Part shown: piece by piece, positions 8,938 to 56,950 of the stretch
Numbering within the stretch: position 1 is the first letter of the stretch
How the letters are laid out: each line of letters starts with the position of its first letter
Assembly (NCBI GenBank): GCA_016390365.1
Contig: GCA_016390365.1_3043.1
Reading direction: 5' to 3' (one strand)
Source: a phage
Length of the DNA stretch: 64,000 nucleotides
The notes under the pieces: generated by a model
What the model saw: the letters and a program-made list of their open reading frames with translations, nothing else
Databases searched by the model: none
What the model was told of the DNA's origin: nothing
Position numbers and translations under genes: made by a program

Positions 8938-8967
8938 AGACCCTCCTTTTAAGGGTATTTATTCACA

Positions 8968-9747
<780 letters not shown>

Positions 9748-9783
9748 AATTTATACTCCAAAGGGGGCATTTCCCCCTTGTTG

Positions 9784-12732
9784 TTAGAATTTAAAATATT
9801 TACTAATTTTGCGAGCAATTTTAGTAAAGAGAGGCGTTTTCAATTCTTTAATTTCTTCACTCATTTCCTGAATAGCCTTAATTAAAAGAGCATTCACAGC
9901 AGAGTTAGAAATTGTCAGAACATCAGATCCATCAACTTCAACTTTAGATACAGCTTCCGGTAATTCCTTTTCAAGGTCCTGAGCAATAATACCAACTTCA
10001 CGTTTAATAACACTACGGTCTTTAATAGACTTAACTTTATCGTAAATATAAACTTTCAGTCGGCAAACTTTTTCGACCGCTCCATATTCTAATTCTTCTT
10101 TATTAATCTTGAGACGGGAGTCAGAACGAATATACACATCGCTAAAGCTACCATTTCCTGGTGTATAAAAGAATCCATCATGATGGAATTCAAACACAGC
10201 TTGTGGGTGTCCAGCATCAGGAGAAGCCTCCGTGGATCCGACACGAATGATTGCTTGCCCCCACTGTGATGGAATACGACGCATACCAAAGTCAACAGCG
10301 GTGCTATATCCTTGATTGGTTATAACGCTTCTTGCTTTAAGAATAGGATAATAACAATCCTGTGAAACATAACCATGATCAACGAATAATGGAGCTTCTA
10401 CTCGCCATTGGTTGCCCCAATCACCCGGTTGTCTAGCAATCCATCCAGAACCGTTAATGTGTACACGGTCACGGTTAACGTTAACCATTGCGGTATTTTG
10501 CGGGTTTAACGCAATCTCACCATTGTTTGTGATATGTACTGCCGCCTGAGAAGCATAGCTATAAAATGCTAGCGAATTATCAGCACCACCCTTACCAATA
10601 TACCAGTTACCAGTCCCGTCTATGTCACCACGAATATGCAAAGAATTACTAGCAGTCGTTGATAATACAATAGAATCATTAGGTGCATTGATTGTTAACC
10701 GACCTGTCATCGTATCACCGCCTTTACCTACGCGAGTATTCAAGGCAGCATCTAAATTTGTCGCATTGTTATATTTCTTCCAGATTGAACCGGCAATATT
10801 ACCATCTGTATTAAGGAACGCATCACCGACATATACACGCCCTGGAGATTTAAAATAACCTGACGGCATGAAAGTCCACTGTTTTAACCCATCTGCTGTT
10901 CCATCAGCGGATAAATCACCCTGAGCAATGATCTTATATTCGGATGTACCTATAGCCATACCAGTGGCAAAGGTGATATTACTTACAGTATTTTTCTGTT
11001 TAACAATTGGCGCAAACTGGTTTTTATTTGAATCGTCAATAGCCTGATATAATGGCGCAATGGTAGTATTCTGATTTGCGTAAGTATTAGAACCAGAACC
11101 GCTAGCAGGGGCTTGAATATATGCTCCTGGAGCAAGTGAAATTTTCTGATTAGCACCAAGATTAACAGCAGCAGTGATATTCAGCAATCCCCTAAAGTTT
11201 TGTTGAGCAGTCCAAGTATGTGATCCGTCTTCAAGAACAACGCGTCGAACTGTACAAGTTCTATTTCCAGAATTACCGAACACACGAACGACAAAATAAC
11301 GGTAGTTTGTCTTGGATACGGTGCCGCGCCAAATCTGAACAGTACGTCCTGTGCCAGTCTGTTCGCTAGGACCAACGGAAAACATAACCAAGTTTCCGTC
11401 AATCGTCCCCCAATCCATATTTGCTGGCATATTCTTTATTTTGTTCAAAGGAACGCTAAACATACTACCAGGGACAAAATCAAAGGTTTGCCAATCTAAC
11501 TCCGCTAATCGAGCTTTAATACCACCCATACCTAAAGTAATTGGCAGAGAGTAAGATGTATATACTTCGTTCCATGCACCCCACGCACCACCAGTATATG
11601 CACGCTCAAAAATACGTCCGCGAGTAGTTGCACCTGTTCCGGCAGTAGTAAATTTTTGGAAAATAGCACCACCAGAAGCACGCTGTTTAACTTCCAGCAA
11701 ACCAACAATAACAGGCGGCAAACCTTCACCTGTAGGGCAGTTAATAACGGCATCGGTGCCTAAAATATTATATAACCCAGGAGTTTTAAAATCATTAAGG
11801 TCACCATCATAGAAAGTCGCTGGTGTGACATTACCGACTTGTTGCCAAGGTCCCCATTTAGGCGCAGAAGCATCCCACGCAGCAGCAAGACAACGAGTAT
11901 AAACAACACCAAATCTGGTCGTATATCTCTGTGTGCGAGAATAGTTTCCACCTTCATATACTTCTAAAAGTCCTTGAGCGGACGATCCTTCTTCTGGGAA
12001 ATTTCTGTCAAAGGTAGCAATGGAATTTGAACTATTTCGCCACAAACCAAGGTGTTCAGCGCCTCCTAGATCATTAAGATCAATCGTTGTTGACAGTGGA
12101 CGAGTACCAGATTGAATATTTCGCCACGCACTCCACGGACCGTTTACTCCGTTCCATGTAGCAGTCAAGGAACGAATATAAACATTTCCGTATCTAGTTG
12201 TATATCTCTGAGTACCAGCAAATTGACGACCGGCCACAAATACTTCTAGAACACCTACAGCATTTTCTTCTGGAAATTTATTTGCTGGTTGAGCGTTGGT
12301 TGAAGTTGCTTTCGACCAAACTCCAAGATATTCTTCAACAGGCCCATACTCATCTAAATTAGCATCAACAGGTAATTCGCCGTTATTTTTTATAAACGTT
12401 GTACTATTTACATTTATATCAGATGGAGTTAGTGTAATGTCCTTTGATCCATCAAAAGATATACCATTAATTTTCCTAGGTGTTTGCAATTTAGTAGCTG
12501 TACTAGAATTTCCAATTAAAGTTCCAGTTATATTTTCTGTAACCTCTAAAGATCCATTTATAGTTCCTCCATATTTTAAACCTAATTCTATAACACTACC
12601 TGAGTCATCTTTTGTGAAAATTGTTTTATCTTTTAAGTTTATAGCCAATTCACCTTCGGCTAATACTGAAGCTGCAGGACGTTGACCTGCAATTTTGCTT
12701 CTTTTAAATTGTATTTGTTTTAAAGTAGCCAT
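9784..12732 (-). CDS. 37: long tail fiber distal subunit gp37
   Basis: 982-aa ORF; conserved N-terminus; position between 36 and 38; C-terminal helical segment resembling an intramolecular chaperone. Confidence 0.9.
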   Translation of the reverse strand: MATLKQIQFKRSKIAGQRPAASVLAEGELAINLKDKTIFTKDDSGSVIELGLKYGGTINGSLEVTENITGTLIGNSSTATKLQTPRKINGISFDGSKDITLTPSDINVNSTTFIKNNGELPVDANLDEYGPVEEYLGVWSKATSTNAQPANKFPEENAVGVLEVFVAGRQFAGTQRYTTRYGNVYIRSLTATWNGVNGPWSAWRNIQSGTRPLSTTIDLNDLGGAEHLGLWRNSSNSIATFDRNFPEEGSSAQGLLEVYEGGNYSRTQRYTTRFGVVYTRCLAAAWDASAPKWGPWQQVGNVTPATFYDGDLNDFKTPGLYNILGTDAVINCPTGEGLPPVIVGLLEVKQRASGGAIFQKFTTAGTGATTRGRIFERAYTGGAWGAWNEVYTSYSLPITLGMGGIKARLAELDWQTFDFVPGSMFSVPLNKIKNMPANMDWGTIDGNLVMFSVGPSEQTGTGRTVQIWRGTVSKTNYRYFVVRVFGNSGNRTCTVRRVVLEDGSHTWTAQQNFRGLLNITAAVNLGANQKISLAPGAYIQAPASGSGSNTYANQNTTIAPLYQAIDDSNKNQFAPIVKQKNTVSNITFATGMAIGTSEYKIIAQGDLSADGTADGLKQWTFMPSGYFKSPGRVYVGDAFLNTDGNIAGSIWKKYNNATNLDAALNTRVGKGGDTMTGRLTINAPNDSIVLSTTASNSLHIRGDIDGTGNWYIGKGGADNSLAFYSYASQAAVHITNNGEIALNPQNTAMVNVNRDRVHINGSGWIARQPGDWGNQWRVEAPLFVDHGYVSQDCYYPILKARSVITNQGYSTAVDFGMRRIPSQWGQAIIRVGSTEASPDAGHPQAVFEFHHDGFFYTPGNGSFSDVYIRSDSRLKINKEELEYGAVEKVCRLKVYIYDKVKSIKDRSVIKREVGIIAQDLEKELPEAVSKVEVDGSDVLTISNSAVNALLIKAIQEMSEEIKELKTPLFTKIARKISKYFKF

Positions 12733-12740
12733 AAGTCCTC

Positions 12741-35031: not shown

Positions 35032-36254
<1,223 letters not shown>

Positions 36255-36255
<1 letters not shown>

Positions 36256-42517: not shown

Positions 42518-42786
42518 TGTTTGTTGTTCACACTATTTATGAAAATGAAGGTAATACTACACGTGATTACGGTCACGTAAATCAATTTTTTAGATGCAAT
42601 CCAGAATTCCGAGCTCAAAAAGACGAACGAATTTTTAAAAAATGCGTAGAGCAAGGTTTCATTTATATCAAGCACTGGATGCAAGGAAATAAAGTTAGAA
42701 CCACGTACCACAGGTCTTTGACTGAGCTTAATGATGAATTGATTTATAATAGAGCTGTAAACCAAACTCTAAAGGATGAACAATGA
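42517..42786 (+). CDS. hypothetical protein
   Basis: 89-aa ORF immediately upstream of ligase gene. Confidence 0.45.
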   Translation: MFVVHTIYENEGNTTRDYGHVNQFFRCNPEFRAQKDERIFKKCVEQGFIYIKHWMQGNKVRTTYHRSLTELNDELIYNRAVNQTLKDEQ

Positions 42787-44246
42787 TTCTTAAAATTCTG
42801 AACGAAATAGCATCTATTGGTTCAACTAAGCAGAAGCAAGAAATTCTTGAAAAGAATAAAGATAATGAATTGCTTAAACGGGTATATCGTCTGACTTATT
42901 CTCGTGGGTTACAGTATTATATCAAGAAATGGCCTAAACCGGGTATTGCTACCCAGAGTTTTGGAATGTTGACTCTTACCGATATGCTTGACTTCATTGA
43001 ATTCACATTAGCTACTCGGAAATTGACTGGAAATGCGGCAATTGAGGAATTAACTGGATACATCACCGATGGTAAAAAAGATGATGTTGAAGTTTTGCGT
43101 CGAGTGATGATGCGAGACCTTGAATGCGGTGCTTCGGTATCTATTGCAAACAAAGTTTGGCCAGGTTTAATTCCTGAACAACCTCAAATGCTTGCAAGTT
43201 CTTATGATGAAAAAGGCATTAATAAGAATATCAAATTTCCAGCCTTTGCCCAGTTAAAAGCTGATGGAGCTCGGTGCTTTGCCGAAGTCAGAGGTGATGA
43301 ATTAGATGATGTTCGTCTTTTATCACGAGCCGGTAATGAATATCTAGGATTAGATCTTCTTAAGGAAGAATTAATCAAAATGACCACTGAAGCCCGCCAG
43401 ATTCATCCAGAAGGCGTGTTAATTGATGGCGAATTGGTATACCATGAGCAAGTTAAAAAGGAGCCAGAAGGCCTAGATTTTCTTTTTGATGCTTATCCTG
43501 AAATTAGTAAAGCCAAAGAATTCGCCGAAGTAGCTGAATCACGTACTACTTCTAATGGAATCGCTAATAAATCTTTAAAGGGAACCATTTCTGAAAAAGA
43601 AGCTAAATGCATGAAGTTTCAGGTTTGGGATTATGTTCCGTTGGTAGAAATATACGGTCTTCCTGCATTTCGTTTGAAATATGATGTACGTTTTTCTAAA
43701 CTAGAACAAATGACATCAGGCTATGATAAAGTAATTTTAATTGAAAACCAGGTAGTAAATAACCTAGATGAAGCTAAGGTAATTTATAAAAAGTATATTG
43801 ACCAAGGTCTTGAAGGTATTATTCTCAAAAATATCGATGGATTATGGGAAAATGCTCGTTCAAAAAATCTCTATAAATTTAAAGAAGTAATTGATGTTGA
43901 TTTAAAAATTGTAGGAATTTATCCTCACCGTAAAGACCCTACTAAAGCGGGTGGATTTATTCTTGAGTCAGAGTGTGGAAAAATTAAGGTAAATGCCGGT
44001 TCAGGCTTAAAAGATAAAGCCGGCGTAAAATCGCATGAACTTGACCGTACTCGCATCATGGAAAACCAAAATTATTATATTGGAAAAATTCTAGAGTGCG
44101 AATGCAACGGTTGGTTAAAATCTGATGGCCGCACTGATTACGTTAAATTATTTCTTCCGATTGCGATTCGTTTACGTGAAGATAAAACTAAAGCTAATAC
44201 ATTCGAGGATGTATTTGGCGATTTTCATGAGGTAACTGGTCTATGA
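42783..44246 (+). CDS. 30: ATP-dependent DNA ligase gp30
   Basis: 487-aa ORF, same length as T4 DNA ligase; adenylation motif KADGAR present. Confidence 0.97.
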   Translation: MILKILNEIASIGSTKQKQEILEKNKDNELLKRVYRLTYSRGLQYYIKKWPKPGIATQSFGMLTLTDMLDFIEFTLATRKLTGNAAIEELTGYITDGKKDDVEVLRRVMMRDLECGASVSIANKVWPGLIPEQPQMLASSYDEKGINKNIKFPAFAQLKADGARCFAEVRGDELDDVRLLSRAGNEYLGLDLLKEELIKMTTEARQIHPEGVLIDGELVYHEQVKKEPEGLDFLFDAYPEISKAKEFAEVAESRTTSNGIANKSLKGTISEKEAKCMKFQVWDYVPLVEIYGLPAFRLKYDVRFSKLEQMTSGYDKVILIENQVVNNLDEAKVIYKKYIDQGLEGIILKNIDGLWENARSKNLYKFKEVIDVDLKIVGIYPHRKDPTKAGGFILESECGKIKVNAGSGLKDKAGVKSHELDRTRIMENQNYYIGKILECECNGWLKSDGRTDYVKLFLPIAIRLREDKTKANTFEDVFGDFHEVTGL

Positions 44247-44431
44247 AAGCTTACTTAGAAACAGTTGTCGTGGCTCAAAAAGAAGGTGGAGATGTTTCTA
44301 CTTCTGTATCACAAGTCGTTCTCGAATTTGTAGATGCATATGCTTATAATAAATTTACAGAAACATTTGATGCCTATGAAAAAGGTCCAAAGTTTGAAAT
44401 ATACCGTACTCTCTTACCACTAGATTATTAA
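44243..44431 (+). CDS. hypothetical protein
   Basis: 62-aa ORF followed by a CUUCGG hairpin terminator. Confidence 0.45.
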   Translation: MKAYLETVVVAQKEGGDVSTSVSQVVLEFVDAYAYNKFTETFDAYEKGPKFEIYRTLLPLDY

Positions 44432-44452
44432 AGGCCTTCGGGCCTTTAATTT
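44431..44452 (+). terminator. terminator-like CUUCGG hairpin before alt late promoter
   Basis: AAGGCCTTCGGGCCTT followed by TAATTTT. Confidence 0.55.
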
Positions 44453-44460
44453 TATAAATA
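44453..44460 (+). promoter_or_regulatory. late promoter (TATAAATA) upstream of alt
   Basis: Exact TATAAATA immediately after a terminator hairpin, 20 nt before RBS GAGAGG. Confidence 0.65.
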
Positions 44461-44646
44461 GAATAAACACTAGAGAGGATATGATGGAACTTATTTGACG
44501 AAGATACTACTCTTCCAATTACAAACTTAAATCCAAAGAAGAAAATACCGCAAATTTTTTCAGTTCATGTTGATGATGCAATTGAACAACCAGGCTTTCG
44601 TTTATGTACCTATACATCTGGAGGTGATACTAATCGCGATTTAAAA

Positions 44647-46533
44647 ATGGGCGATAAAATGATGCATATTGTTCCTTTTACATTAACTGCTAAAGGTTCA
44701 ATTGCTAAATTAAAAGGTCTTGGTCCAAGCCCAATTAATTATATCAATTCAGTTTTTACTGTTGCGATGCAAACAATGAAGCAGTATAAAATTGACGCGT
44801 GCTTATTCCGTGTACTAAAGAGTAAAACAAATGGCGCAGCTCGTCAAATGCAAGTTATTGCTGACCGTTTAGTACGTACTAAAGGAGCAGGTCGATATGT
44901 TCTTTTAAAGGAAATCTGGGATTACGATAAAAAGTACGCATATATTATGGTTTACCGTAAAAATGCCAATTTAGAAGACATTCCAGGTGTACCTCCTATT
45001 TCAACTGAGTTATTCACAAAAGTTGAATCAAAGGTCGGTGATGTTTATGTAGACGTTAAAACAGGTAATGCTGTTCCTAAAGCTGTCGCTGTTGCTGCTT
45101 CTATTGCTTTAGAAAATGATAAGCGCACGGACCAAGCTGTTATTCAGAAAACTAAAATCAGTCGTCGATTAGCAGCACAAGCTCAATATTCTACTGTCGA
45201 TGCTTCACTTCAGGGTGATAGCTTCGCTGCTAAGAAATATCAGGAATTTGAATCTAAAGTTCCGGTATATAAAGCAGAAGGACCAATGAACTCTGGCGTT
45301 ATTCAGATTGGTTCAAACTTCAGCAAAGGAGCTATTGGTGGTATGAGAAGTGCTTTTCGTTTTAAATCTAACGATTATGAACTAGAAAGTTTCCGAAATC
45401 ATATTGCATTAGCCCATGCACGTTTACGTGATCCATCTATCAAGTTGCAGAGCGATATAACATATCAAGGTTCTCAAGAATATTTAAAGAATAAAGAATT
45501 CTTTGATTATAAAACTGATAAAATTTTAAGCGATCTTGCTGACATTAATATTTCTAATAGCTTTGATGTTATTAAGAAAATTATCAATGATTTAGTTAAA
45601 GGTTCTAAAGCTACACCAGATGAAAAGACAGCTATTATTCAATTTGTCATGAATGGCATTTATAAATTGATTAATGAATCTGCCGCCCAGGCATATGAAT
45701 ACGCAAGCACCGAAGTAGCTCCAAAAGGACTGACTCAGGCTGAATCTGATGTAATTGAAGATTATTGTGCAGATTCATATGTTGAAATGAACTCGTTTCT
45801 TTTGGGTAAACCGGATTCTACCCGCGAAGAATATATGGAACGAGCTATTAAGCACATCGAGACGTTGGATTCTGCATTCGCTAAAGGTTCAGTTCTTCCT
45901 CCAGGAACTACACTTTACCGTGGACAAGAAGTTACCTTTAAAACTTTGCGTCATAACATTGAAAACAAAATGTTCTATTTCAAGAACTTCGTATCTACAT
46001 CGCTTAAACCAAATATCTTCGGCGAGCATGGTAAAAACTATATGGCTCTAGATGATTCTGGCGCAGTATTTTCTGGTGAAGGAGAAGGTTCTGTTGATGC
46101 AGAAGATTTGATGCATATGGGTAGTCATTCTACATATGCTAATGAAGATGCTGAAACTAGCGTGGGTATGGTAATTAAAGGAGCTGAGCGAATCAAAGTT
46201 ATCGTTCCAGGTCATTTATCAGGATTTCCATCAGAAGCTGAAGTTATTCTACCGCGTGGAATTTTACTGAAGATTAATAAAGTAAGTACGTACTTTATGA
46301 AAGAAACTGCTTATAACAAGTATCTAATCGAAGGTACAATCGTTCCTCCTTCTGAACAATTAGAAGAATCAGTATATGATGGCGACCATCTAATGGAAAC
46401 TGGTGAAGTTCGTCCAATGGCTGGATTTAATCAATTCCTTGTAGAAGAATCAAAAGAAGAGGAAAACGAAGTTTCTCAAATCTTAGCTTCTTTGGTTAAC
46501 ATCAACGGAATGTCTAAAAAGTTCAAAATGTAG
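44647..46533 (+). CDS. alt: ADP-ribosyltransferase Alt (5' end disrupted; coordinates from first in-frame ATG)
   Basis: 628-aa ORF with ART-like motifs (YRG, STS, EVILPRG); frame is open upstream to 44485 (..FDEDTTLPITNL..) but RBS-linked ATG at 44481/44484 is in another frame. Confidence 0.75.
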   Translation: MGDKMMHIVPFTLTAKGSIAKLKGLGPSPINYINSVFTVAMQTMKQYKIDACLFRVLKSKTNGAARQMQVIADRLVRTKGAGRYVLLKEIWDYDKKYAYIMVYRKNANLEDIPGVPPISTELFTKVESKVGDVYVDVKTGNAVPKAVAVAASIALENDKRTDQAVIQKTKISRRLAAQAQYSTVDASLQGDSFAAKKYQEFESKVPVYKAEGPMNSGVIQIGSNFSKGAIGGMRSAFRFKSNDYELESFRNHIALAHARLRDPSIKLQSDITYQGSQEYLKNKEFFDYKTDKILSDLADINISNSFDVIKKIINDLVKGSKATPDEKTAIIQFVMNGIYKLINESAAQAYEYASTEVAPKGLTQAESDVIEDYCADSYVEMNSFLLGKPDSTREEYMERAIKHIETLDSAFAKGSVLPPGTTLYRGQEVTFKTLRHNIENKMFYFKNFVSTSLKPNIFGEHGKNYMALDDSGAVFSGEGEGSVDAEDLMHMGSHSTYANEDAETSVGMVIKGAERIKVIVPGHLSGFPSEAEVILPRGILLKINKVSTYFMKETAYNKYLIEGTIVPPSEQLEESVYDGDHLMETGEVRPMAGFNQFLVEESKEEENEVSQILASLVNINGMSKKFKM

Positions 46534-46563
46534 TTTACAAGTCCCTCGTGTTGTGTTATAGTA
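46533..46563 (+). promoter_or_regulatory. early-type promoter (second copy of alc-type element)
   Basis: GTTTAC at 46533; about 55 nt nearly identical to 33603..33657. Confidence 0.45.
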
Positions 46564-46587
46564 TTCTTACTGACATAACATGAGGAA
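46533..46587 (+). repeat. promoter-leader repeat, copy 2
   Basis: Near-identical to 33603..33657. Confidence 0.8.
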
Positions 46588-46593
46588 CACAAA

Positions 46594-46884
46594 ATGAAAT
46601 CTTCTTTACGCTTTTTAGGTCAAGAACTTGTAGTTGAAGGCGTTATTCCTGCTGATAATGCTTTTAATGAAGCAGTTTACGATGAATTTATCAAAATTTT
46701 TGGAACAGATAAAAAGTTCGGAATTTTTCCTTCTGAAAATTTTTCAAAGCCAGAACAGACTGAAAGTATTTTTCAGGGTGTAGTAACAGGTAAATTTGAG
46801 TCAGAAGCTCCGGTAAAAATTGAAGTTTATATTGAAGACAGTTTAGTTGCTTCAGTTTCTGCTTTCATTTCATTCCGTAAATAA
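46594..46884 (+). CDS. hypothetical protein
   Basis: 96-aa ORF; promoter-leader element upstream nearly identical to that of alc. Confidence 0.5.
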   Translation: MKSSLRFLGQELVVEGVIPADNAFNEAVYDEFIKIFGTDKKFGIFPSENFSKPEQTESIFQGVVTGKFESEAPVKIEVYIEDSLVASVSAFISFRK

Positions 46885-46908
46885 AAATATGGGGACCTTT
46901 CGGTCCCC
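46881..46908 (-). terminator. rho-independent terminator after gene 54
   Basis: Hairpin GGGGACC(GAAA)GGTCCCC on minus strand followed by T-run (plus-strand AAAAATAT). Confidence 0.6.
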
Positions 46909-46912
46909 ATTG

Positions 46913-47878
46913 TTATATTGCTCCTAATATTTTACTCTGCGAATTGACAATCCCTGTCATAGTATTAATGTTTGAAATGCTTCCTGCAGTCCCTCCTAAT
47001 CTACTAAGTCGTGAAAGCGAATTAGATAGTCCAGTAACACCTCCACTATTTCCAAGAACGCTTTGAATACCATTTATAGCAGCAGATTCAAGCCATTCAA
47101 GCGCAGCTTGCCTATCAACTGCTCCAGCCTGCATCACTCTGTACGCAAAAGTAACATCAAATGTAGTTATTTGGTTATCTCCATCATATGATAACTCAGG
47201 AGCGCTCACTGACACTGGAATGCATCCAGTGAACATCACCGCAGTATGAGGTAATCCATTGCGAGAATGAAGATTAACCTGAATATCTGCCTCGACATCT
47301 TGTGGCAAAGCACGCAATCCAGTTACTGGGTCTTGAACAGAGTTAACCCAGTCTTGCATTGCACGATAGTTACAAGCTTCTGAATCCATTCTAAATGAAA
47401 TAACCAAAGGGTCTAATTCTCTCCCAGTTATACGAATATTAGGAGAATTATAGTTCCAGTCAGTTTCATAGGATAATCTATTCTCTGGCATTTTTACAGA
47501 GTATATCATCAATCCAGATGAGTTATATGCCATGTTAAAGAAGTCAATTAAATATGTACCAACTGTAAATGAGCCTAATAAACTTTGAACTGTACGTTGA
47601 CTCATGGCACCAATAAGATATTTACTAACCCCTGATTTTCTTATCAGTTTTTGTGTGCCAGCTGTAATTAGCGTGGTAATTCCCTGATTAATATCGCCTT
47701 GAGTTAATCCTAACCAATTTGAATTTAGGCCCAAGTTATTATAAGAAAAGTTGCTAATTGAACTTATCAACGAAGAGCTTTTAGTTGATGGAGTTGTCGC
47801 AAAAACGCAGCTAAACATATTATTACGTTGGAAATCTGCGTTTATTGCTTGATTATTAAATTCCTCTAAAGAATACAT
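46913..47878 (-). CDS. 54: baseplate tail tube initiator gp54
   Basis: 321-aa ORF; length and order match T4 gp54. Confidence 0.88.
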   Translation of the reverse strand: MYSLEEFNNQAINADFQRNNMFSCVFATTPSTKSSSLISSISNFSYNNLGLNSNWLGLTQGDINQGITTLITAGTQKLIRKSGVSKYLIGAMSQRTVQSLLGSFTVGTYLIDFFNMAYNSSGLMIYSVKMPENRLSYETDWNYNSPNIRITGRELDPLVISFRMDSEACNYRAMQDWVNSVQDPVTGLRALPQDVEADIQVNLHSRNGLPHTAVMFTGCIPVSVSAPELSYDGDNQITTFDVTFAYRVMQAGAVDRQAALEWLESAAINGIQSVLGNSGGVTGLSNSLSRLSRLGGTAGSISNINTMTGIVNSQSKILGAI

Positions 47879-55182: not shown

Positions 55183-55425
55183 TTAAAAGCTTTCTTCTAC
55201 TTCATTGTCTGAATCTTCTAATTCAGCTCTTTTTCCTGCCAAAGCATCTCTCACAGAGATGTCATCAGTATCTTTTAATTCAGTTTCTTTAACTCTTTTC
55301 TTATAATAAGCTTCAAGTTCTTCTAAACCTTCTAATGTTTGACAAGAGGCAATTTTACCCATAAATTCATCAATAGAAGCTTCATAAAGAAATTGTTTAA
55401 ATTCTAGTAACATCTTTTTCTCCAA
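55183..55425 (-). CDS. uvsW.1: UvsW.1 protein
   Basis: 80-aa acidic ORF immediately downstream of uvsW on the same strand. Confidence 0.6.
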   Translation of the reverse strand: MEKKMLLEFKQFLYEASIDEFMGKIASCQTLEGLEELEAYYKKRVKETELKDTDDISVRDALAGKRAELEDSDNEVEESF

Positions 55426-55438
55426 AGGGCCGAAGCCC

Positions 55439-56950
55439 TTATAAATTAACTGTTTTCATTACGTAATTAAATTTTTCATCTGCGTAGCGCTGAATACGAT
55501 CAATGCCGTGTTTTAAAAGATAGTTCAAATGAACGTATTTCTTTTTCGTATTAGCAGATTTTGGCTTGACGCCTGCGTCATCTATAAGATCCCAGACTGT
55601 TGCAATTGTTTTAGAACCATGTTTACGTAATACGCGACCTATTGTTTGCAATACAATAATTTTAGATTTAACACCGTGTGCTAAAACAACGTGATGCAGA
55701 TTTTTAACTGAAATACCAGTAGAAAATACACCATAACTAGCTACTATAATTATTCCTTTACCGTTTTCAGCTAAGGTTTTCATTATATTGCGGGTTTCGG
55801 TATCAACTTCCCCTGATACGTAATAAACTTTATCGTATTCATTTTTAATTAAATCGAAAATAGCTTTACCGTGCGATACGTGTTTAAACATGACAAAAGC
55901 GTTTTCATCTTTTTGTGCAAGCTTAATAGCTAATTTAGCGATCCATTTATTTCTTTTACTAAGCCCAGTAATAATTTTTATTTCTTCTTGGTAAGTTTTT
56001 CCCTTTAATTTAGTAGTGAACTCATCGGGATAGCGAAGAAAAATACTATTAATTTTTAACTCAGTTACTTGTCCATCTTCCATTAATTTAGAGGTCGTTA
56101 CTGGCTTAAATATTTCACCGAACATTCCAACATACTGCATGATATTGGCTTTGCCATCACGTAATGAACCAGACAAACCGAATTTGAACATGCAGTTATT
56201 TAAACCTGATATGATAGATGAAATACTTTTTCCTGTAGCAAGATGACATTCATCATTCATCATCATTCCAAACTGTGAGAACCATTCTTTCGGTTGTTTT
56301 ACTACAGTTTGCCATGTACCAACAACGACCGGTGCATCATTTTTATATTTATCATCTTTTGATGCTCCACCACCGATTTTCTTTATCATTGCATGACTGA
56401 ATAAACGATAGTCAACAAAGTCATCAGCCATCTGAGTTGTCAGAGCAGTTGTTGGAACAATAATAAGAATTTTGCCTTCATAATTTTCCAAATAATACCG
56501 AGCAAGCAAAGCTTGAATTAAAGATTTACCTGCGGATGTTGGAAGATTAAGAATTCTACGACGATTAACTAATCCTTCGAACACTGCATCTTTTTGATAC
56601 CAATGCGGTTCAATTCTTTTATTTCCTGAATAGATTTCTAATTTAGAAAGCCATTCATCAAAATCTTTTCTTGATAATTCTTCTTTTTCGTTAATCTGTG
56701 GGTCAATCCAGGCTTTATAGCCAAAGTTATCGCAGAACTTTTTAATTTGCCCGACTAAACCGAATGGAAGAAGGCGATTATAATCTAAAAGACGAATTCG
56801 TCCATCCCAGTGGCCATATTTGTACTTCGGATTAAAACGATACCCATCAGCTTCAAAGCTAAAGAAATCACGGAGTTCATGAAATGTACTTTCTTCACAA
56901 TCAATTCTCACGTGACTAAAATCATAAAAATGTACTTTAATGTCAGTCAT
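55439..56950 (-). CDS. uvsW: RNA-DNA and DNA-DNA helicase UvsW
   Basis: 503-aa ORF with SF2 helicase motifs (PTSAGKS Walker A, DECH box); late promoter upstream. Confidence 0.95.
   Translation of the reverse strand: MTDIKVHFYDFSHVRIDCEESTFHELRDFFSFEADGYRFNPKYKYGHWDGRIRLLDYNRLLPFGLVGQIKKFCDNFGYKAWIDPQINEKEELSRKDFDEWLSKLEIYSGNKRIEPHWYQKDAVFEGLVNRRRILNLPTSAGKSLIQALLARYYLENYEGKILIIVPTTALTTQMADDFVDYRLFSHAMIKKIGGGASKDDKYKNDAPVVVGTWQTVVKQPKEWFSQFGMMMNDECHLATGKSISSIISGLNNCMFKFGLSGSLRDGKANIMQYVGMFGEIFKPVTTSKLMEDGQVTELKINSIFLRYPDEFTTKLKGKTYQEEIKIITGLSKRNKWIAKLAIKLAQKDENAFVMFKHVSHGKAIFDLIKNEYDKVYYVSGEVDTETRNIMKTLAENGKGIIIVASYGVFSTGISVKNLHHVVLAHGVKSKIIVLQTIGRVLRKHGSKTIATVWDLIDDAGVKPKSANTKKKYVHLNYLLKHGIDRIQRYADEKFNYVMKTVNL

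Follow-up and report, generated by a model that had tools for sequence, protein, structure and literature searches.

An 11-nucleotide deletion at the start of the ADP-ribosyltransferase gene alt probably leaves a T4-like phage without functional Alt

Organization of the alt locus

The stretch of DNA analysed here (the window) covers 64 kb of the genome of a Tequatrovirus, a T4-like phage, and runs in reverse relative to the T4 reference. A tblastn search with 99 T4 proteins across the window places rIIB at its left end and genes 22 and 23 at its right. The closest phage records are ~96–97% identical over 24 kb.

The gene at the centre of this work had been predicted to be alt, which encodes the phage head ADP-ribosyltransferase, and synteny, domain content and sequence identity all bear this out. 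The order gene 30–alt.1–alt–alt.-3–gene 54 (Table 1) matches the T-even Alt locus and is the same in Yersinia phage PST. The product matches PF03496 (E = 4.5e-20, 72 bits against a cutoff of 23.4), and PF26846 (Tevenvirinae_ADPRT) is on record for the longest conventional reading frame that remains. The best nucleotide matches of the gene are PST alt (96.4% identity) and then ECML-134 alt (95.7%). There is no second alt paralogue at the locus, unlike in T6 and many relatives.

Table 1. Features of the alt locus and of the pseT lesion (positions in the window)
Feature	Position	Strand	Evidence
pseT fragment 1, 179 aa, kinase domain and DxDGT motif	35349–35888		
pseT fragment 2, 127 aa, overlapping fragment 1; ATG 17 nt before the new TGA	35872–36255		
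Gene 30 (DNA ligase)	42783–44246	+	tblastn
alt.1	44243–44431	+	tblastn
GC-rich hairpin after alt.1, core AAAGGCC-UUCG-GGCCUUU, then T-rich tract	44427–44450	+	Fold
T4-type late promoter box of alt, TATAAATA	44453–44460	+	Read in sequence; homologous position in X69894.1 annotated 'T6 late promoter'
Shine–Dalgarno (SD) sequence of alt, GAGAGGA (core GAGAGG, 44472–44477)	44472–44478	+	Homologous stretch in X69894.1 annotated ribosome_binding_site
Residual mini-ORF, ATGATGGAACTTATTTGA, M-M-E-L-I-stop	44481–44498	+	Sequence, alignment
Deletion junction, 11 nt absent relative to T4, T6 and PST	44490–44496	+	Alignment
Body of alt (ADP-ribosyltransferase), shifted frame, open throughout, cut off from start codon	44485–46533	+	
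Match to T4 Alt within alt	44491–46524	+	tblastn
Longest remaining conventional ORF, 628 aa, starting at Met59 of full-length Alt	44647–46533	+	PGAP 'ADP-ribosyltransferase', MBJ0221103.1
alt.-3	46594–46884	+	tblastn
Gene 54	46913–47878	-	tblastn

The hairpin that follows alt.1 folds at -13.5 kcal/mol (z = -3.6; none of 200 shuffles folds as well), and its sequence is the same in T4, T6 and PST. A consensus terminator scan did not call it; ahead of the late promoter of alt, it probably acts as a terminator or stabilises RNA.

Reading frames at the alt start

The normal start codons of alt are at 44481 and 44484, and the T6 alt record X69894.1 has its CDS start annotated at the homologous position. 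The late promoter and SD sequence of alt are both present, yet no continuous reading frame (MELITELFDE...) extends from the ATG. Instead translation would end after four to five codons at the TGA at 44496–44498, which is a product of the deletion. The body of the gene lies in the +1 frame relative to the SD-linked ATG. This Alt frame (44485 + 3n) is open to a stop at 46531–46533, is closed on its upstream side by a TGA at 44482–44484 that overlaps both start codons (ATGATG), and has its first ATG, GTG or TTG at 44647, which corresponds to residue 59 of intact Alt. The original prediction had described a late promoter and an SD sequence followed by MMELI and a stop, all of which can be read in the sequence between 44453 and 44498, and a frame scan confirms its further claim that the Alt frame is open from 44485 with no ATG before 44647.

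No SD-like motif occurs within 20 nt upstream of the in-frame ATGs at 44647, 44659 and 44662, and none of the near-cognate codons (ATT, ATA) that precede 44647 in the Alt frame has such a motif within the same distance. The nearest GGAGG ends 22 nt upstream of 44647, and the stop codon of the mini-ORF is ~150 nt upstream.

Extent, uniqueness and origin of the deletion

Aligned with PST, T6 and T4, the window shows near-identity across 180 nt, interrupted by a single gap of exactly 11 nt. The gap comes directly after I4 of MELI (I5 when numbering begins at the first ATG) and removes codons T5, E6 and L7 and part of F8, including the ITE-6 cleavage site of the gp21 protease. A loss of about 11 nt after codon 5 had been anticipated on the basis that T4 Alt begins MELITELFDEDTTL; the alignment fixes the length, and T4 Alt does start with this sequence.

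A junction probe of 81 nt centred on the deletion was run against phage records. It matches 500 records, all at 80–90% identity, and among the matches listed the value is 88.0% over 92 nt, which corresponds to 81 matches and an 11-nt gap. The 500 phage records therefore carry the 11 nt, and the deletion is found in none of these 500 Tequatrovirus records. The exact junction string is not found in IMG/VR, where the undeleted T4-type string ATGGAACTTATTACAGAATTATTTGACGAAGA is present and the parental string CTTATTACAGAATTATT occurs in three contigs. Because the junction is shared by none of the 500 records and its exact string is missing from IMG/VR, the deletion is private to this genome, a uniqueness established by comparison with relatives and not by a statistical signal.

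At the deletion site T4 has two copies of TTATT, separated by ACAGAA, with C before the first copy and TGAC after the second. Starting from a T4-like parent (CTTATTACAGAATTATT), six equivalent 11-nt deletion registers (TTATTACAGAA to ACAGAATTATT) yield the window sequence, which indicates that one copy of a 5-bp direct repeat was lost together with the 6-bp spacer. Loss of a direct-repeat copy and its spacer is a classic signature of slipped mispairing, and slippage between the TTATT repeats during replication most likely generated the deletion. The argument is weakened by the fact that PST, the closest relative at the locus, has CTC in place of CTT as its third codon, as does T6; from a parent of the PST/T6 type, the microhomology at the deletion would be only 1 bp.

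Integrity of the rest of alt

Restoring the 11 nt gives an Alt of 686 aa with no other stop or frameshift. The restored protein has the same length as the Alt proteins of PST and ECML-134, and PST differs from it at seven residues. These two phages also share the alt.1–alt–alt.-3 context and have no second alt paralogue; they differ from the window in that their reading frame is continuous from the SD-linked ATG. The R/STS/ExE motif is intact, with LYRGQ, FVSTSL and SEAEVILPRG aligning with the T4 motifs, and the catalytic glutamate aligned with T4 E577 is kept. The E577A mutant of T4 Alt is inactive (PMC11404850). At the C-terminal gp21 site the window has QLEE/SVYDGD where T4 has ELTE/SVIYDGD (T4 L-T-E 619), so that the LxE pattern of this putative cleavage site is kept. 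The N-terminal gp21 site, I-T-E(6), is absent, its codons having been deleted.

Between the restored gene and PST alt, 66 codons differ, for which the Nei–Gojobori method counts 61 synonymous and 8 non-synonymous changes (dN/dS = 0.033). This ratio points to strong purifying selection on alt that lasted until very recently, and together with the intact body of the gene it indicates that the deletion is young.

T4, T6, PST and this phage have the same Alt sequence over the first ~100 residues, and the remainder of T4 and T6 Alt is ~46% identical to the PST type; beyond that N-terminal stretch, T4 Alt is likewise only ~46% identical to the Alt of the window. By alignment, alt is a mosaic gene with a strongly conserved N-terminal module. 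Identity over ~100 residues, in a protein that has otherwise diverged to 46% in T4, suggests that the N terminus is under constraint.

A second lesion in pseT

The window carries another private frame-breaking change, in pseT (polynucleotide kinase/3'-phosphatase; 35349–36255). A 2-nt deletion (CCTTATGACC to CCTTGACC) at ~35886, directly after the DxDGT phosphatase motif, divides the gene into two fragments (Table 1), and is found in none of 510 matching phage records. A stop codon TGA followed by C stands at both junctions, ATT/TGA C in alt (44496–44498) and CCT/TGA C in pseT (35886–35888), which is probably a coincidence in an AT-rich genome.

Both alt and pseT are dispensable accessory functions in host takeover or counter-defence, and lesions confined to dispensable genes are as expected of real mutations tolerated on a permissive host. 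As a hypothetical alternative to mere tolerance, loss of alt and pseT may have been selected in the E. coli host because it let the phage evade a defence triggered by sensing of the two proteins.

Authenticity of the deletion

The original prediction proposed resequencing across the junction as a check. Public data go part of the way: Logan contig SRR7296920_609 (3,521 nt), from an independent assembly of public reads, is an exact substring of the window (43436–46956) with the same junction, and the 628-aa residual product is also called on the Logan contig of this run. The comparison is between assemblies, and the Logan assembly was probably built from the same reads as the NCBI assembly. The presence of the same junction in an independent assembly rules out an assembler artefact. 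Other Logan contigs of SRR7296920 are also exact substrings of the window; the one that reaches pseT ends ~200 nt before the pseT junction, and none of three reading frames from the pseT fragments is on record.

The deletion might still have arisen during sequencing or library preparation, or be a minority variant that became the consensus in a phage whose alt is really intact. It is unique among 500 relatives, the rest of alt looks fully functional by its dN/dS, the contig was obtained incidentally in an E. coli whole-genome sequencing (WGS) project, the Logan contigs are short (1.2–3.5 kb), which suggests low or modest coverage, and pseT has its own private indel. These observations have to be set against the identical junction produced by two different assemblers, and against the nature of the change, an 11-nt loss outside any homopolymer that is atypical of short-read or base-calling error, at a 5-bp repeat that cannot collapse in a k-mer graph. 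They also have to be set against the state of the other genes: ~95 show no frameshift, among them continuous long reading frames for gp34 (1289 aa), NrdA (754 aa) and gp29 (590 aa), and the two that are broken are both known to be dispensable, as real surviving mutations would be. We consider an artefact unlikely, and place a mixed population of deletion variant and wild type, or a library artefact, in the same improbable range. A generally error-prone assembly is ruled out, because only 2 of ~97 T4-homologous genes found by tblastn (alt and pseT) are broken. We conclude that the alt lesion is real but ordinary.

Consequences for the Alt protein

Alt is a late-made head protein, with ~40 copies in each head, that enters the host together with the DNA (PMC2988021; copy number also PMC9026906). 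Among the host proteins that it ADP-ribosylates is one RNA polymerase (RNAP) alpha subunit, at Arg265, and it boosts some early promoters ~2-fold (PMC2988021). Cleavage by the gp21 protease takes six residues off the N terminus, at ITE-6, and 63 off the C terminus, at LTE-619 (PMC5694885). The protein is non-essential (PMC5694885; PMC9026906).

In the phage described here, ribosomes that start at the SD-linked ATG would terminate after MELI, and the 680-codon remainder of alt would be left without a start codon bearing a ribosome-binding site. The phage would thus be expected to make no Alt, or at most traces of a truncated protein from Met59. As such a product would lack the gp21-processed propeptide, it would probably be kept out of the head. 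No Alt would then be injected by the virions, and Arg265 of RNAP alpha and other host proteins would escape immediate ADP-ribosylation; modA, whose product may modify alpha later, and modB are not part of the 64-kb window. The phage should nevertheless be viable because alt is dispensable. That no Alt or an N-terminally truncated Alt would be made had been predicted, and this is indeed the most likely outcome given that the Alt frame has no SD-linked start.

The accompanying suggestion that the N-terminal region matters for packaging calls for a qualification. The documented gp21-cleaved propeptide makes it plausible, but a packaging role is not firmly established for Alt, with one source stating that all internal head proteins use a CTS (PMC5694885) and a review stating that conservation of the IPII/IPIII capsid-targeting sequence does not extend to other core proteins (PMC9958956).

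Two routes by which Alt activity might survive have to be weighed. Initiation at the internal Met at 44647 would give residues 59–686, a soluble late ADP-ribosyltransferase that is not packaged. The 628-aa reading frame for this product is intact, contains the whole catalytic domain and is called by PGAP. There is, however, no SD-like sequence within 20 nt of 44647, 44659 or 44662, and the stop of the mini-ORF is too far away for translational coupling; with neither an SD sequence nor a nearby stop, internal initiation at Met59 is very unlikely. Even if it were made, a protein without the propeptide would probably not enter the prohead, so that the role of the injected enzyme would be lost anyway.

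The other route is a +1 frameshift at AUU UGA C that would still yield a low level of Alt starting MELI-DEDTTL and supply the head with its ~40 copies, a small requirement. Skipping base 44496 rejoins the Alt frame exactly, since 11 + 1 nt make 12 nt, or four codons; the product would be four residues shorter, and its I-D-E recreates an IxE gp21 motif at the same position. In E. coli, termination at UGA is inefficient when the next base is C, and the CUU UGA C of E. coli prfB (RF2) is likewise a sense codon ending in UU followed by UGA C, with the reading frame continuing in +1. The resemblance to prfB is superficial, however, because here the codon is AUU, the SD sequence is wrongly spaced (~15 nt upstream of the shift codon, against ~3 nt for the one that stimulates prfB) and the arrangement is not conserved in relatives. 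The site occurs in none of the 500 relatives and is therefore not a conserved recoding signal; tRNA-Ile slipped onto UUU would have a first-position mismatch; the downstream RNA is without unusual structure (z = 0.10); and the yield would probably be well below 1–2%. We regard rescue by frameshifting as extremely unlikely. The same downstream fold rules out structure-stimulated recoding, and a bypass in the style of gene 60 is ruled out because the sequence has no matched take-off and landing codons.

We therefore return to loss of function, and consider it highly probable that a recent, strain-specific 11-bp deletion in codons 5–8 leaves the non-essential alt gene null or severely hypomorphic, with no packaged product. 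Because the gene belongs to the Alt family by domain, motif and synteny but has neither a continuous reading frame nor the ITE propeptide, alt in this genome is best filed as a pseudogenised or null allele.

Relation to known alt alleles

Viable T4 alt- mutants are credited to Horvitz 1974 and Goff & Setzer 1980 in the later accounts through which we cite them (PMC2988021, PMC9026906). In these mutants, as in the engineered T4-delta e/IPIII/IPII/alt and Alt E577A, the phage is likewise a viable T-even one whose injected ADP-ribosyltransferase has lost its function. The present allele differs from the T4 alt- strains in being spontaneous, in belonging to a non-T4 Tequatrovirus found within an E. 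coli WGS assembly, and in consisting of an 11-bp deletion in propeptide codons that is carried by none of 500 database genomes. Thus the allele is new, but its kind, a viable alt null, has long been known.

The decay of Alt-family genes also has a precedent in T4 alt.-1 and alt.-2, which the NC_000866 annotation describes as an old duplication of the 5' part of alt, interrupted by a stop codon. Both align to residues ~7–113 of the window Alt. They are old and diverged remnants of a second copy (53–65% identity), whereas in this phage the sole alt copy at the locus is affected, and very recently.

Annotation and use of the allele

The 628-aa product is deposited at NCBI as MBJ0221103.1, 'ADP-ribosyltransferase [Escherichia coli]', on a contig of 165,981 bp that also encodes its neighbours MBJ0221101.1 (ligase, locus tag F1442_11290) and MBJ0221105.1 (gp54). 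Because this phage contig was deposited within an E. coli WGS assembly (MBJ02211xx, F1442_), phage proteins are labelled as E. coli in nr. MBJ0221103.1 is the tail of a frameshifted phage alt gene and not a bacterial enzyme, and is probably not expressed.

The 90% cluster that contains the 628-aa product also has members of 624, 619 and 531 aa that start at internal methionines, the 531-aa member coming from a Shigella flexneri contig of 169,851 bp. There are thus hints of N-terminally truncated alt calls in further T4-like genomes. A search of IMG/VR for related Alt loci gave six, too few for a base rate of truncation.

If recovered, the phage would be a natural alt-null, apparently PNK-phosphatase-defective Tequatrovirus and a handy natural control for the part played by injected Alt in host takeover. 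Since viable alt nulls have been known since the 1970s, the allele raises no new biological question, and its main value lies in annotation and strain characterisation.

Other features of the window

The uvsW and uvsW.1 genes are separate reading frames on the minus strand (~55186–56947), with a junction at ~55441 that consists of a stop codon, the hairpin GGGCTTCGGCCC, an SD sequence and an ATG. The T4 reference NC_000866.4 has a fused UvsW of 587 aa, and differs from the window by 1 nt and two substitutions. The clean order of stop, hairpin, SD and ATG rules out uvsW as a third frameshift.

In the region ~8940–12740, the T4 gp37 query matches over its first 64 residues only, and T4 gp38 has no match, indicating that the distal tail-fibre or adhesin module is not of the T4 type. 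The window contains no homologue of the T4 homing-endonuclease and small accessory genes segD, segE, segG, mobE, nrdB.1, nrdA.1 and 30.8. Between pseT.1 and pseT there is an extra reading frame of 106 aa (35032–35352) that is absent from T4 and has no Pfam match on record; an identical sequence is present on eight other contigs in NCBI, Logan and ENA.
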